From a virus (Duplodnaviria > Caudoviricetes): a stretch of DNA of 64,000 nt. The notes below the pieces were generated by a model. The model worked only from the letters and a program-made list of their open reading frames with translations. It made no database searches and had not been told where the DNA came from. Below, piece after piece: positions 48,230-59,725 of this stretch. The stretch is from IMG/VR virus record IMGVR_UViG_2627854274_000001, positions 1,087 to 65,086 of that record; one strand, 5' to 3'. Position 1 is the first letter of the stretch. Every line of letters starts with the position of its first letter. The position numbers and the translations under genes were made by a program.

Positions 48230-49200
48230 GTTTTGATCTTCCCGAGCTTGTCGAACTGTCGAATGGTAGTGAAACGCTCACGTTCGATGGTGGTAGTGGT
48301 GTGAGTCCCGATGATGATGTTCTTCTGATTGGGGAGGATGGTGTCGAGGGATGGTTTGAGTCGCCGGATGATAAGACGGTGATGAGCGAGCGGGGTCAGG
48401 GTGATGGCGCGCATGATGTGTGGGCGTCGGATATTCTGTATTCGGCTCGCGTGTTGACGTTGCATTTCATCGTGTCGGCTCATGACCGGCAGGGTGTTGT
48501 CCGGCTTCTCAATAAGGTTCGTCGCGTGTGTGCCCACAGTAGGGTGCGGTTTCGGCTTCGTGATGCTGGCTACGACTGTTATGCGACTGGTAGGGCGACT
48601 GTGAAGGCGTCCGCGAAGTATGCTCAGGATGGATGGTTGGAGGATTGCACGTTGACTGTGACGTGCGAGCGGCCTGAGATTCTGAGCATGGACGAGTATA
48701 CGTGCCAGTTGAGCGCGATGCACGTTTCCGGTGGGGCTGTCGGATTGCGGTATGGGCCGGGCTATTGGACGGAATGGGAGGGGGCACGTAACGCTTCCCC
48801 GAGTCTGATGCATACTGAGTCGAATATTGGTTTGCGTGGATTGGCTTACCCGTTGAATTATGGGTTGAAATTGGATGGCGTCGGGTCGAACGTCGGATTG
48901 TTGTACAATCGCGGCACTTCCCGCGCATATCCGACGTTCATCGTGCATGGTCCTATGGATGGCGTGCGTTTGGATTTTCCGGGAACCCAACAGTCGATTG
49001 TGTGCGATCAGACGGTGCGTGATGTGCCGTTGGTTTTGGATTGTCGGAGTCGTACCGCCCAGTTGGGTGGCCAGGATGCGAGTCGGCAATTGTCCCGGCG
49101 TGGTTTTCCGACGATTCCGGCTGGTGGTTCGCTTCGTGTGGTCTTGTCGAATCTTGGTAATGGTTTCGTTGATTGCAGTGTGCGCGACACCTATATGTAA
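48226..49200 (+). CDS. Distal tail (Dit-like) protein
   Basis: Follows TMP; GLAYPLNYG...NRGTSRAYP; carries a YWTEWEGARNASPS insertion. Confidence 0.8.
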   Translation: MSFDLPELVELSNGSETLTFDGGSGVSPDDDVLLIGEDGVEGWFESPDDKTVMSERGQGDGAHDVWASDILYSARVLTLHFIVSAHDRQGVVRLLNKVRRVCAHSRVRFRLRDAGYDCYATGRATVKASAKYAQDGWLEDCTLTVTCERPEILSMDEYTCQLSAMHVSGGAVGLRYGPGYWTEWEGARNASPSLMHTESNIGLRGLAYPLNYGLKLDGVGSNVGLLYNRGTSRAYPTFIVHGPMDGVRLDFPGTQQSIVCDQTVRDVPLVLDCRSRTAQLGGQDASRQLSRRGFPTIPAGGSLRVVLSNLGNGFVDCSVRDTYM

Positions 49201-49209
49201 GGAGTTTGA

Positions 49210-50142
49210 ATGAGCACGGTTGCTTTGGGAGTGTCACCGGATACGAATGGTGTTGGTGTGACTCCGCTTGTGCATCGTCGTATTTTGGGTGCCCAGTGGG
49301 CTAATACGGGTTTGGTTGACGGGTTGAACGTGACAGGCCGGAGTGACCTGCGGTATAACGTTAGCGCTGGTGTTGCCGTGTGTTCGCGTGGGTCGGCTGA
49401 TGGTAAGACGTTGGCTTATTTCGAGGGTGGTCAGACTCCCGCCGTGGCGGCTGGCGACCCTTCCAATCCGCGTATCGACATCGTATGGATTCAAGCCCAT
49501 AATCTGATGGAGTACAAGGATTCGGACAATTACGTGACGGTGGGCGTCACTCAGGGTTCTCCTTCGGCTAGTTTGGCTGAGCCGACCATTCCGGCTGGCG
49601 CGACGATGTTGAGGAAGATGAAGATGCCAGCCGGAGCCTCTTCCACCGCTTCAGCGGTTCAAATGTGGAGCGCCGACTATGCGATACCGTATGGCGCGAG
49701 TCTCGGCAAGATTGGCGAGAATTGGGATCGGCGTGACATGACCGGCGATTCGACGGTGGGGAGATACTATTTCGAGCAGGAGATCGAGTTCAGTCTTCCA
49801 TCTGACCGCATGTTGGAACTGTCGTTCAAATGCAACCTCAGCTCGGCCGGTGCGACTTCGTGGTCTGACATGTCGCATCGCACGGAATGGGCGGTAGGCT
49901 TTCAGATCGATGGCAAGGATCTGGACCACTCGTGCGCGAACTTCGTTTCCTATGGTGCGTGGGAGACGCACGAGACCAGTTACGTGACGGCGGTGAACAA
50001 GGGTCACCACACGGCGCGCCTGCGCACGTGGCTTCAGTACGGCAACGCGCCGGTGTTCCACTACAACGCTTCGCAGGGTGACAATAACGCCCTGTGGTGC
50101 GGCAGGCGATTCATCATCTGGGACAGGGGGCAGGTGGTCTGA
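49210..50142 (+). CDS. Minor tail/baseplate protein
   Basis: YNVSAG...PSNPRIDIV...QGSPSA..PTIPAGA. Confidence 0.75.
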   Translation: MSTVALGVSPDTNGVGVTPLVHRRILGAQWANTGLVDGLNVTGRSDLRYNVSAGVAVCSRGSADGKTLAYFEGGQTPAVAAGDPSNPRIDIVWIQAHNLMEYKDSDNYVTVGVTQGSPSASLAEPTIPAGATMLRKMKMPAGASSTASAVQMWSADYAIPYGASLGKIGENWDRRDMTGDSTVGRYYFEQEIEFSLPSDRMLELSFKCNLSSAGATSWSDMSHRTEWAVGFQIDGKDLDHSCANFVSYGAWETHETSYVTAVNKGHHTARLRTWLQYGNAPVFHYNASQGDNNALWCGRRFIIWDRGQVV

Positions 50143-51770
50143 TGGCGTGGAACGCGTTCCTGTATGACACGCTTACTGGGCAGATCGCGCAGAGCATCGA
50201 CGTTCCGTCGTTCTCATGGTCGATGACGGTCTCAGATTCGAGCTTCAGCACCACGAGCCAGCATGGCAAGGGCGTGGGCGATGACGAGCTGACCGGTTTG
50301 GAATTGCCGTGGAGTCAGATTCCGGGCACCACGCCCGCCGCGCGTGCAAGCGCGTTGCAGCCGTACAAGCGTGGCATCGCATTGTTCTGGAAAAGCACGC
50401 TCGATGACATAGCCTCGCTGGGTACGCCTGTATTGGCGGGGGCGTTGGGCGTGCGCACGTCCAGTTGGAACGATGTGAGCGTCCCCTACGTGTCGATGAT
50501 GGGATTGCTGGAAGACCGGTATCTAGTGCATGAGGGTTCGTTTGGCATGGATGCTGGGCATACGTCCAGGAAATCGTATCGGTGGGAGAATCTGAGCTGG
50601 CGCGCTTTGGCGTGCGAGGTGATCCGCCAGTGCACTGAGGTGAAGCCTGGCGGTTCGTTGCCCATCGATCTGCCGTACTTGAACGAGACCGGCACGCATT
50701 CGCTGCCTTCGGATGGTTCGACGGATGATAAGAACGCGCCGAAGCAGAAAAGCAAGAAGCGTGTGAACACGGCGGACGGGTATGTGGAGACCGTGGTGGA
50801 CGGGGATACGACCACCATCACGGAACAGCATGTGACCAGGAAGACGAAGCAGGTCACGGAGACCAAGCCGTATTCGTATACGACCCGCAAGGGCACGGTC
50901 ACGAAGCAGCATACGACCACTAGGACCATCACCGTGGCGCAGACCACGGTGACGAAGAAGACAGTCACGAAGAACTACGCTGACTACAGCGAGCGGACCG
51001 TGACCACCACGACCACGGTGTATTCGTTCGACGGGAACGGCAAGCAGACAGGCAGCGCCACAAGTACGGATGGCCCGCATAAGACGATACTGCCCCGTCA
51101 GACCGTCGCGGAATACAAGGACTTCAACATCTCGAACCACCGCTGCTCGGATATTCTCAAGAGCATCGCCAACAGCGATGACGGTCCCGATATGCAGTTC
51201 CGCCCCTATCTGTCGGATTCACAGCACATCCGGTTCCGGTTCCTCGCCGGTTCTGACGGCGACGTGTACCTGAATCAGGACAAGCGCCTGTCGTTGTCGT
51301 GCTCGCCATCCGGGGGAACGTTGGAGAACGTGAAGATAGACCGAGCCGCACCGTTCATGCGCGTGTACGCCACCGGAGCGGGCACCGACTCGGGCACGAT
51401 GTGCTGCCAGAGCGAGGATCTGACTCTGGTGAACCGTGAGGACCCGTACCCGCTGCGTGAGACCACGGTCAGCAGCACCGATTCTAAGACCTACGAACTG
51501 CTGGCGTCCACGGCCAACGGGTTGTTGAACGCGAACCGCAAGCCCTTGATGCAATTGTCCGGTGAGATCAACGTTGACGATAGTGATGCGATGGGATTGC
51601 CGTTGCATCCGCTTGGGAGTTTCTGGCCGGGGGAGATGTTCGATATTGCGATTGACGGTTTCCCCGACTTGCCGGATGGCGTGTATCCGATGCGTTTGAT
51701 GCAGATGAGCGGTGATGAGACTGGCAAGGTGACTGTGAAGTTCGACCCTGTGGCTGACCCGACCGCCTGA
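50142..51770 (+). CDS. Minor tail (Tal/hub-like) protein with Thr-rich insertion
   Basis: YDTLTG...DGPDMQFRP...LGSFWPG. Confidence 0.75.
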   Translation: MAWNAFLYDTLTGQIAQSIDVPSFSWSMTVSDSSFSTTSQHGKGVGDDELTGLELPWSQIPGTTPAARASALQPYKRGIALFWKSTLDDIASLGTPVLAGALGVRTSSWNDVSVPYVSMMGLLEDRYLVHEGSFGMDAGHTSRKSYRWENLSWRALACEVIRQCTEVKPGGSLPIDLPYLNETGTHSLPSDGSTDDKNAPKQKSKKRVNTADGYVETVVDGDTTTITEQHVTRKTKQVTETKPYSYTTRKGTVTKQHTTTRTITVAQTTVTKKTVTKNYADYSERTVTTTTTVYSFDGNGKQTGSATSTDGPHKTILPRQTVAEYKDFNISNHRCSDILKSIANSDDGPDMQFRPYLSDSQHIRFRFLAGSDGDVYLNQDKRLSLSCSPSGGTLENVKIDRAAPFMRVYATGAGTDSGTMCCQSEDLTLVNREDPYPLRETTVSSTDSKTYELLASTANGLLNANRKPLMQLSGEINVDDSDAMGLPLHPLGSFWPGEMFDIAIDGFPDLPDGVYPMRLMQMSGDETGKVTVKFDPVADPTA

Positions 51771-58845: not shown

Positions 58846-59214
58846 ATGAGGGTCACGAACCGATGCACGAGCCCAACCTCGACCATCACCTTGAGAGCAA
58901 ACGCGTGGAGGCCCATCACGACCGTTCCGAGCGTGATGGGCATGAACTATTGGGTCAGCGTCTATGTGAACGTCACCGGCGGCACCATCCGGATAGAAGG
59001 AACGAATGCCGACATCAGCAAAAGCCAACGTATCCATTACTCGATGGTCATCAACAATACCGGTCCGGTATCAATGTGTTATCGCGTCAAGTCAGGCAGT
59101 CCGACCGTCACCGTGACAGACATGCTCTTATGCTCGTTCGACGAGTATCAGGCGAACAAGGCTGTGCTCGACAGCCTCCAATATTTCACCGGGGATACGA
59201 TGCCGCTAGCCTAA
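58846..59214 (+). CDS. Receptor-binding cassette B (CBM-like)
   Basis: MRVTNRCTSP...YFTGDTMPLA. Confidence 0.7.
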   Translation: MRVTNRCTSPTSTITLRANAWRPITTVPSVMGMNYWVSVYVNVTGGTIRIEGTNADISKSQRIHYSMVINNTGPVSMCYRVKSGSPTVTVTDMLLCSFDEYQANKAVLDSLQYFTGDTMPLA

Positions 59215-59233
59215 CCCTCACGGGGGTGGTGGC

Positions 59234-59725
59234 ATGAGCCCGATCACCAACTATTGGCCAGACCCGCGTTTCCGCGACATCGGCAAGCTCGGCATGCACG
59301 GCTGCACCATCGTCAACGCGAACGGCCTGTACGACCCGGCGAGTCAATCATGGCCGGGCGTCACCATCAAAACGACAAACACAAACGGTACGGATAACTG
59401 GTGTGAGAGGACCGTCAGCCTGCCAGCGGGCGCGAGGCTCGTCATTGCATGCAGTTCGAACGGCAACGCTACCGACACGAACACCAGCATCAACTGCTGG
59501 AGCGCGACAAATAAGGTGGCGGAATGCCCTTTGAACGGTGGATCGAGCGACGAGTTCACCGTCCCGCCGCAAGGGTGGATAAAAGTCACCCTGAGAGCGG
59601 CAATGCATGTTGGCGAGAAGCGCACGGTCGTAAACCTGTTCATCGGCACCAAGGCCGACTACGAGGCTTTGATGCGGCTCACCGGCCATAGGTTCCTCGC
59701 TGGCGACTTAATGCCGATCGCATAG
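59234..59725 (+). CDS. Receptor-binding cassette C (CBM-like)
   Basis: MSPITNYWPDPRF...FLAGDLMPIA. Confidence 0.7.
   Translation: MSPITNYWPDPRFRDIGKLGMHGCTIVNANGLYDPASQSWPGVTIKTTNTNGTDNWCERTVSLPAGARLVIACSSNGNATDTNTSINCWSATNKVAECPLNGGSSDEFTVPPQGWIKVTLRAAMHVGEKRTVVNLFIGTKADYEALMRLTGHRFLAGDLMPIA

Follow-up and report, generated by a model that had tools for sequence, protein, structure and literature searches.

Here we report the analysis of three small adhesin-like genes, and of a short motif that recurs in the tail proteins encoded upstream of them, in a prophage carried by a 64,000-nucleotide stretch of DNA (hereafter the window, to which coordinates refer; IMG/VR record IMGVR_UViG_2627854274_000001, positions 1,087 to 65,086). 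The window corresponds to G000:C1:1088912-1152911 of a complete 2.37 Mb genome (2,370,978 bases, 56% G+C). Since the named relatives of its tail fibre segment come mainly from Bifidobacterium species (Bifidobacterium ruminantium, B. scaligerum, B. amazonense, and B. olomucense), along with some Collinsella contigs from metagenome-assembled genomes (MAGs), the host genus is Bifidobacterium. The three genes, termed here cassettes, encode predicted carbohydrate-binding module (CBM)-like proteins with variable cores and a conserved C-terminal tail, and the motif, termed here the socket, occurs once in the distal tail protein Dit and five times in the fibre. Based on comparisons of these sequences, we propose that the cassettes are virion adhesins anchored by their tails, which would act as plugs, and that the plugs would dock on the sockets; we put the docking proposal at about even chances and the anchoring of virion adhesins by the tail somewhat higher. 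In cassette 1, a poly-G tract is very probably a phase-variable switch, which removes only the conserved tail.

All three cassettes are encoded on the plus strand. Cassette 1 (58314/58317-58818) is frameshifted in the window and thereby off, and the tails of cassette 2 (58846-59214, 122 amino acids) and cassette 3 (59234-59725, 163 amino acids) are intact. Cassettes 1 and 2 gave hidden Markov model (HMM) matches at E 5.4e-38 and E 2.2e-22, respectively, and cassette 3 was modeled by AlphaFold2 (AF2) as a complete beta-sandwich with one helix, at a predicted local distance difference test score (pLDDT) of 91.8 and a predicted template-modeling score (pTM) of 0.86. The tail of cassette 3 (residues 151-163), which is its best-conserved part, is left unpacked in this model, its block means being 69 and then 52. 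Foldseek comparison of the model with the PDB returned seven matches at E up to 0.001, 1cx1 (CBM4) and 2xom (CBM61) among them, with a CBM16 structure (2zey) right at the E cut-off. A module that binds hyaluronan and tailspike 4 of CBA120 were also matched, the query template-modeling score (TMq) being 0.44-0.56; the corresponding matches in BFVD were tail fibres, tailspikes, and minor tail proteins of actinophages. None of the three cassettes has a Pfam or PHROG family, so that no curated CBM sequence family was matched, and profile searches of solved structures with two alignments (A3, the family of the fused protein P0124 described below, and A2) gave nothing better than E 0.027. From the predicted fold we infer that the cassettes are glycan-binding, CBM-like beta-sandwich adhesins.

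The cassettes form a family of mostly free-standing proteins with divergent cores and conserved termini. At E up to 0.001, 56 of 75 candidates proved homologous to cassette 3; these are all unnamed proteins of 91-169 amino acids, and no longer relative was found beyond them. In an alignment of 26 cassettes, the cores are 17-55% identical to cassette 3, while the start is conserved as an Asn followed by a Pro five residues on, and the end as G-D-x-M-P followed by one to four residues. The earlier note on this DNA had described shared starts and ends in the three cassettes, which is correct for both ends of cassettes 2 and 3 and for the start of cassette 1; the end of cassette 1 (F-F-T-G-D-T-M-P-L-A and stop) lies out of frame behind a run of ten G, a frameshift that the note had missed. 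An exhaustive cassette-profile search of 1.84 billion representatives yielded 335 proteins at E up to 0.001, and the 147 representatives examined among the matches listed are mostly free-standing, with 120-200 amino acids. The conserved tail is kept across the 50%-identity representatives, and 50 of the 125 short ones have Gly at the key position discussed below. In a phylum-wide sample, the cassette family was found in one of 400 other genomes, within a 1363-amino-acid frame, so that no further free-standing lineage was added.

Among closely related phages the cassette cores are extensively shuffled. In IMG/VR we found 304 relatives of the socket segment and kept 80 of them, which are 89-96% identical in that segment. 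The 47 loci with three cassettes (window included) contain 16 core clusters in 18 arrangements, with eight, two, and six core types at positions 1, 2, and 3, respectively. The cassettes are thus free-standing, variable, and interchangeable, as the earlier note had supposed: their homologues are all short, and their cores are exchanged among near-identical phages, which also bears out the variability across prophages that it had suggested looking for. The only sizeable family of direct repeats at 56900-60300 consists of the 29-base 3' ends of the cassettes on the plus strand, at 58789-58817 (cassette 1), 59185-59213 (86% identical), and 59696-59724 (72% identical). A RecT/Bet-like gene, to which the note had attributed a possible role in cassette exchange, is indeed present at 4519-5655.

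The same note had ruled a reverse transcriptase and an invertase out of the system, and the genome agrees with it on both counts. A diversity-generating retroelement was rejected, as the PF00078 reverse transcriptase had no match in the whole genome, and no invertase is found near the cassettes, where the integrase at 62010-63368 is the only recombinase; the nearest resolvase-family match is about 940 kb away. No meaningful inverted repeats were found around the cassettes, all of which are on the plus strand. We also rejected a shufflon of the Rin type: there is neither an exact rix site nor an invertase or inverted sites, and with up to two mismatches rix had 5 matches compared to 9.45 expected. 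The junction after cassette 2 (59205-59222) contains a single copy of C-C-T-A-A-C-C-C-T-C with no inverted partner; compared with the inversion sites given in the accessible text of PMC6109161, it agrees with the Rin rix site at 8 of 11 bases and with a second site at 7 of 8.

The poly-G tract of cassette 1 is G10 in the window (58767-58776, plus strand) and lies between the cassette core and the conserved tail. The core is thus left intact, and the tract directly precedes the last 13 codons. In the window, the tail is shifted to the +1 frame relative to the core, and the open reading frame continues as nonsense to 59237. In all 50 loci with this tract (window included), it consists of 7-11 G and is uninterrupted despite differing flanks; the tail is in frame in 22 loci and out of frame in 28 (56%), the counts at single loci being open to assembly errors. 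For a given flank, the frame follows the number of G modulo 3: one flank type is on with 7 or 10 G and off with 8, 9, or 11, another is on with 9 G and off with 7, 8, or 10, and the flank of the window is on with G9 (locus L083) and off with G10 (the window itself). An uninterrupted tract across diverged flanks, out of frame in more than half of the loci, fits a contingency locus. A switch located 13 codons ahead of the stop would have little effect unless the tail were essential, and the location of the tract thus argues that the tail is needed for function. The on frame ends at the stop of cassette 1 itself, and the ends of the two off frames are not random either: one stops near the start of cassette 2 in relatives, and the other runs into the start of cassette 3, where stop and start overlap as A-T-G-A (59234-59237 in the window). 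Judging by these end points, the tract might also shift translation of, or coupling between, the downstream cassettes. Many members of the cassette family in databases end in such read-through tails. In cassettes of other Bifidobacterium prophages (P0072, P0076, L037 at 1740-2813 on the minus strand, and L148 at about 6089), a G tract is placed just behind the M-P-L end, and one frame past it enters a recurring hydrophobic stretch resembling a membrane helix, which starts with G-G-G-A-G-L-N-A. Two prophages of a single genome (L045 and L046) differ at this tract.

The socket motif was defined by a strict regular expression, [YFW][WTY]..W.G..N.SPS, and by a looser core, W.G..N.S.S. The strict expression has exactly six sites, one in Dit and five in the fibre, which are the six reported in the earlier note. 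The Dit socket (48763-48804, plus strand) is a single Y-W-x-x-W-x-G-x-x-N-x-S-P-S unit that directly precedes G-L-A-Y-P-L-N-Y-G, as the note had stated, and is kept in three relatives (L060, L065, and L093). In the fibre, two tandem pairs are located at 53286-53327 and 53340-53381, with the units 18 residues apart, and at 54375-54416 and 54429-54470, followed by a single socket at 55446-55487, inside a segment that some relatives lack (all on the plus strand). In a six-frame translation of the 2,370,978-base genome, the looser core has six matches, all of them identical with the Dit and fibre sites and in frame, whereas residue frequencies predict 1.42 by chance genome-wide and 0.0006 in the 2066 residues of Dit and fibre, and control patterns of scrambled order (n=6) had 0-3 matches genome-wide. 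The socket motif is thus real, and its distribution lies well outside chance. Alignment A4 is best conserved over the first tandem pair, where 18 columns are invariant in 15 segments. The number of sockets varies among relatives, with one or two units in the Dit-like protein and four or five in the fibre, and Dit-like relatives differ by a clean 21-residue indel, which adds a second motif unit. The description of the sockets as short insertions therefore holds for this indel, and for an evolved Dit in which a CBM stands right behind the motif; it does not hold for the third fibre site, which sits in a larger segment missing from some relatives. In many relatives, a different Dit-like protein of about 300 amino acids with one or two socket units is encoded at the genome position of the minor tail protein assigned to phrog_1885 in the window.

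The association of sockets with cassettes is also seen in a survey of the genus. Among 151 genomes surveyed, cassettes occur in 15 and the socket motif in 18, with both in 14, compared to about 1.8 expected under independence. These counts show association and not mechanism, because the related genomes are not independent. A sister clade (L034, from genome G063, and L139-L146) carries sockets in which Ala or Ser replaces the Trp of W-x-G. To compare sockets with tails, we dropped 28 identical cores, 25 cassettes with an unaligned tail, 10 in socketless loci, and 15 without M-P in the tail, mostly frameshifted copies of cassette 1; this left 139 distinct cassettes, all with the tail in frame, from 64 loci that have sockets. 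In the 59 loci with Trp sockets, Gly is found four residues before Met-Pro in all 126 tails, while in the five loci with Ala/Ser sockets it is found in none of the 13, the residue there being W in seven, H in two, Y in two, S in one, and Q in one. In terms of sequence, the change in socket and plug is a reciprocal swap of a large and a small residue, as expected of two residues that touch each other. In a tree of the cores alone (tails excluded), the cassettes of the Ala/Ser clade fall in six places on the best tree, of which supported branches force at least two, and the plug state switches with each placement. Judged by these placements, the plug follows the socket or tail type of the phage and not the ancestry of the core. 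The co-occurrence of motif and cassettes that the earlier note had predicted is thus found in the 14 genomes, and the covariation of sockets with tails adds to it. Further support comes from three loci of the genus (L035, L038, and L040) that have a cassette-like gene with no socket in the tail genes upstream: these also lack the canonical tail. L038 is a different type of phage. No finer covariation between socket variants (N-N-S-P-S, N-N-S-T-S, and N-N-S-A-S) and plug variants (G-D-T, G-D-L, and G-S-L) was apparent by eye across loci, and scans of viral contigs for further independent lineages with P0078, P0185, and P0116, representatives whose plug is aromatic, found no relatives.

Fused relatives connect the two elements in one chain. 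Among the 147 representatives examined, nine carry both the motif and the CBM-like module, in agreement with the suggestion in the earlier note that the two belong together and that proteins with both halves fused should be sought. In all nine, a copy of the motif ends 10-11 residues N-terminal of the T-N start of the CBM. The note had given the reverse order, CBM and then motif; this is seen as an extra copy behind the last CBM of P0132, and the motif precedes the CBM in all nine. Three of the fused proteins are evolved Dits (P0137, P0193, and P0196). The two that were aligned with the Dit of the window, P0137 (42% identical) and P0193 (31% identical), have about 150 extra residues directly after the motif, comprising a linker, a CBM, and a W-F-S-G-D end. 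At this point, the motif in the window's Dit is followed by no more than a 10-residue loop, without a CBM insertion. The expectation that evolved Dits carry CBM insertions is therefore confirmed at the very point where the window's Dit keeps only the motif. Given that motif, linker, and CBM form one chain in the fused relatives, the module is divided in the window between a tail protein and a separate gene.

The division is of another kind than previously supposed. The earlier note had proposed that the domain itself is split and that the tail keeps its final strand or hairpin; this idea is not supported, since the motif is N-terminal of the CBM in all nine fused forms and cassette 3 is modeled as complete alone. 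A split domain completed by a donated strand is not supported on the same grounds, namely the complete model of cassette 3 (pLDDT 91.8) and the position of the fused motif ahead of the domain, of which it is not modeled as a part. We also modeled a fused, free-standing relative, P0124, with AF2 from 37 sequences (pLDDT 82). In this model, a linker hairpin at residues 41-51 is ordered, as is a C-terminal T-W-F-D strand at residues 175-178 (block mean 88). According to the two models, the C-terminal strand is disordered in the free cassette and ordered when the linker is in the same chain. In the family of P0124 (alignment A3), which consists of free-standing proteins of about 200 amino acids, the first 50 residues, motif included, are near-invariant, the CBM core is hypervariable, and a W-F-D-G-D end is conserved. 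By its sequence pattern, this family may be the one-chain counterpart of the socket and cassette pair.

The fused relatives, the co-occurrence, the covariation, the shuffling of cores, and the placement of the G tract lend indirect support to docking in trans. These observations suggest a mechanism in which the cassettes would be free-standing CBM-like adhesins whose variable beta-sandwich cores bind glycans of the host cell wall. Their conserved C-terminal tail of about 12 residues (F-x-G-D-x-M-P-x-x) would be the plug that attaches them to the virion non-covalently. The W-x-G-x-x-N-x-S-x-S peptides, together with the beta-prone residues behind them, would be the sockets and the most likely docking sites; lying in exposed loops, one per Dit chain and five per fibre chain, they would turn the tail into a scaffold for many or mixed adhesins. 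Because all cassettes share the plug, cores could be exchanged between phages without touching the tail. In origin, a one-chain arrangement of peptide, 10-11-residue linker, and CBM would have separated into a socket in the tail and a CBM with a gene of its own. A single G gained or lost would remove or restore the plug of cassette 1, which with G10 would be off in the window. Tentatively, and at somewhat less than even chances, we extend this mechanism to a scaffold of linear-peptide sockets with a Trp-over-Gly clasp, a combinatorial, multivalent display of host-range modules resembling cohesin and dockerin, and poly-G-gated mounting of cassette 1. The socket would then comprise 14 residues and the following strand, each Dit chain having one or two sockets and each fibre chain four or five, and it could receive any CBM adhesin with the 12-residue plug; the clasp would be intramolecular in the fused tail proteins of actinophages; and the poly-G tract would decide by virion lineage whether cassette 1 is mounted. 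The presence of cassettes in the virion, the contact between plug and socket, and the binding of glycans are all inferred.

Several points weigh against docking on the sockets. In the P0124 model, the pLDDT is below 50 over residues 11-38, a stretch that takes in most of the motif, and no packing of the motif on the CBM or on its C-terminal strand is seen. In the survey of the genus, one genome (G038) has cassettes without the motif, four (G011, G022, G025, and G061, the last being 74% complete) have the motif with no cassettes detected, and two (G030 and G052) have the motif and a cassette at separate places. The co-occurrence may simply result from descent of a single prophage tail module. 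IMG/VR records of gut-type samples are the source of 77 of the 80 viral loci, many of them from one data set, and hence the loci are not independent. The covariation is essentially one split between two phage clades: on supported branches there are only two independent pairs (sign test p 0.5), and six of six concordant pairs require unsupported branches. The tails within a phage could also be homogenised by recombination rather than selected for fit.

The same data can be read in other ways. In one of these, which we regard as possible and rather unlikely, the motif is a structural or linker relic of a mobile motif-linker-CBM module, or an aid to folding or oligomerisation, and the cassettes have another point of attachment, such as the fibre tip or the products of 57057-58084, their tails being conserved for that partner. 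It would account for the fused-form motif not being modeled on the CBM and for the evolved Dits, in which the CBM is covalently held and the motif needs no docking role; the third fibre site, as part of a larger optional segment, and the two unexplained small genes between the fibre and the cassettes also agree with it. However, a relic would not stay invariant across species, as in the 18 invariant columns of A4, nor would it be tandem-duplicated or inserted in three tail proteins in varying numbers, and the reciprocal Trp/Gly swap between socket and plug is left unexplained. It is improbable that the cassettes are instead soluble or cell-associated late glycan-binding proteins, such as lysis helpers, decoys, or exclusion factors, which co-occur with the sockets by descent. 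The cassettes do stand immediately upstream of holin-like genes and the endolysin, each begins at its own start, none belongs to a PHROG or Pfam family, and the socketless phage L038 has its cassette-like gene just before the lysis genes; yet the same domain occurs within Dit and long tail proteins of the fused relatives, the predicted fold resembles domains of tail fibres and minor tail proteins, and the tail tracks the tail-protein clade of the phage.

A further explanation moves the constraint from protein to DNA, the cassette ends being kept as crossover sites (RecT-mediated, or for a recombinase acting in trans) rather than as a protein interface. That the 3' ends are the sole direct-repeat family of the region, that cores are shuffled among near-identical phages, that the prophage has a RecT-like gene, and that the junction after cassette 2 shares 7 of 8 bases with a bifidoprophage inversion site (in the accessible text of PMC6109161) would all be in keeping with this. 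But the ends are only 86% and 72% identical over 29 bases and the peptide is nevertheless kept, the ends of cassettes 1 and 2, as we read the repeats, share no more than 11 consecutive bases, and the tail is conserved across 50%-identity representatives; no inverted copies or nearby invertase were found, and every cassette has its own start codon. We consider it distinctly improbable as a substitute for a protein interface. Finally, there is very little to be said for the idea that the motif is modified after translation, such as by N-glycosylation at N-x-S. The N-x-S sequence is indeed present in most copies of the window, whereas many relatives have Asp for Asn (D-A-S in alignment A3) or D-N-S-P/V, which are not sequons, and the invariant positions are the W, the G, and two Ser rather than the sequon; a glycosylation sequon was rejected on account of the Asp variants.

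The cassettes and sockets belong to a prophage that reads as spanning at least 4.5-63.4 kb of the window. The RecT/Bet-like annealing protein (4519-5655) is accompanied by a single-stranded DNA-binding protein (SSB) and replication genes, four tRNA genes (Ser-cga, Trp-cca, Ser-gct, and Leu-caa) are clustered at 29146-30321, and portal and capsid genes were identified. In a tape measure protein of 2021 amino acids (42164-48229), about the last 350 residues hold about four tandem units of about 30 residues, each with P-W-G-R-V-L-G-D. The tail module then runs on the plus strand and comprises Dit (48226-49200, 324 amino acids; phrog_5577, E 7.8e-61, and the Dit family phrog_33, E 2.2e-08), a virion structural protein (49210-50142, 310 amino acids; phrog_3398, E 1.4e-58), and a minor tail protein (50142-51770; phrog_1885, E 7.8e-77) with a Thr/Lys-rich low-complexity insert at about residues 200-330. 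The tail fibre (51828-57056, plus strand, 1742 amino acids; phrog_892, E 1.1e-20, and phrog_26466, E 2.4e-30) has no Pfam family at E up to 0.1. Read by eye, it shows stretches rich in Ala, Lys, and Gln that look like coiled coil, small domains of the G-D-x-W...W-D-G-x-x-W type, repeats of A-N-x-V-T-x-x-K-L, and a C-terminal part rich in Gly, Ser, and Thr. Two genes, also on the plus strand, separate the fibre from the cassettes. They encode an acidic protein of 192 amino acids (57057-57635) with no Pfam or PHROG match and a small protein (57644-58084; phrog_26466 and the tail protein family phrog_1330), whose fibre-type A-N-S-V-T-T-x-K-L repeats point to a possible association with the fibre or role in assembly. 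The endolysin (60494-61294, plus strand) marks where the tail module ends and has an amidase_2 domain (PF01510, E 2e-23), an SH3_5-like part, and a match to phrog_14048, and the tyrosine integrase (62010-63368, minus strand, 452 amino acids) matches PF00589 (E 4.2e-20), PF14659, and phrog_1. Contigs binned to Collinsella MAGs (L049 and L051-L054) carry fibre socket segments 72-96% identical to that of the window, which reflects either a phage group common to two gut actinobacterial genera or a binning error.

Phages of Bifidobacterium are hard to propagate, and their recognition of the host is poorly understood. If the proposed plug-and-socket display is true, it explains how near-identical phages come to have 18 sets of adhesins; the host range would be readable from the cassette content, with the tail type matching the socket type, and the small peptide pair would be a tool for decorating phage tails. 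In a limited search of the literature on bifidobacterial prophage tails, motifs of actinophage minor tail proteins, and shufflons, such an arrangement was not described. Its parts have counterparts in several known systems.

Evolved Dits with CBM insertions are a concept from phages of lactic acid bacteria. The Dit of the window resembles the evolved forms found here (P0137, P0193, and P0196) in its phrog_5577 family, in the insertion point, in the motif at the start of the insert, and in the involvement of a domain of the cassette family, but it differs in that only about 30 residues (the motif and a short loop) are kept and the CBM is encoded downstream. BppU, BppL, and BppA of phages TP901-1 and Tuc2009 serve the baseplate as accessory or receptor-binding proteins and are docked on Dit or the hub. 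The BAPs of mycobacteriophages, in turn, contain CBM-like domains, according to the accessible text of PMC13252515. As in these two cases, separately encoded glycan-binding proteins would decorate a siphophage tail tip non-covalently, which here is predicted from the genes. Unlike the Bpp proteins and BAPs, which are anchored by folded N-terminal domains at one defined site, the cassettes would be held by a C-terminal anchor of about 12 residues, on short linear peptides that recur in several tail proteins and whose number differs among relatives. The cohesin-dockerin scaffolds of cellulosomes and the donor-strand complementation of chaperone-usher pili can serve as analogies only: there too, modules that can replace one another are mounted on the repeated sites of a scaffold by a terminal element that is conserved, whereas there is no relation in sequence or fold to the present system, in which the socket would be a peptide and not a folded cohesin, and the cassette fold is predicted to be complete without a donated strand.

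In bifidoprophages, the Rin shufflon and a second inversion system diversify receptor binding, as reported in the accessible text of PMC6109161. These systems share with the window the host genus, tandem small variable genes behind the tail genes, and junctions of the T-A-A-C-C-C type. Unlike Rin, the window has no rin invertase and no inverted sites, its cassettes are in one orientation and have their own starts, and variation arises from the replacement of cassettes and from the G tract rather than from inversion. As no nearby invertase, exact rix site, or meaningful inverted repeats were found here, the Rin shufflon is a different solution to the same problem.

The closest counterparts of the cassette 1 switch are other intragenic G tracts. 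Hypermutable polyG tracts are reportedly present in the receptor-binding genes of Campylobacter phages (Sorensen 2021, Cell Rep). In Bifidobacterium breve, replication slippage at G tracts controls the expression of pilus genes, according to the accessible text of PMC9187656. The tract of cassette 1 is like both of these in being an uninterrupted G run within a gene, which differs in length among kin and sets the frame. It is unlike them in its placement 13 codons before the stop, where only the tail is lost and the core is kept. If the proposed role of the tail is true, the poly-G switch extends contingency loci from bifidobacterial pili and Campylobacter phages to the actinophages of the gut.

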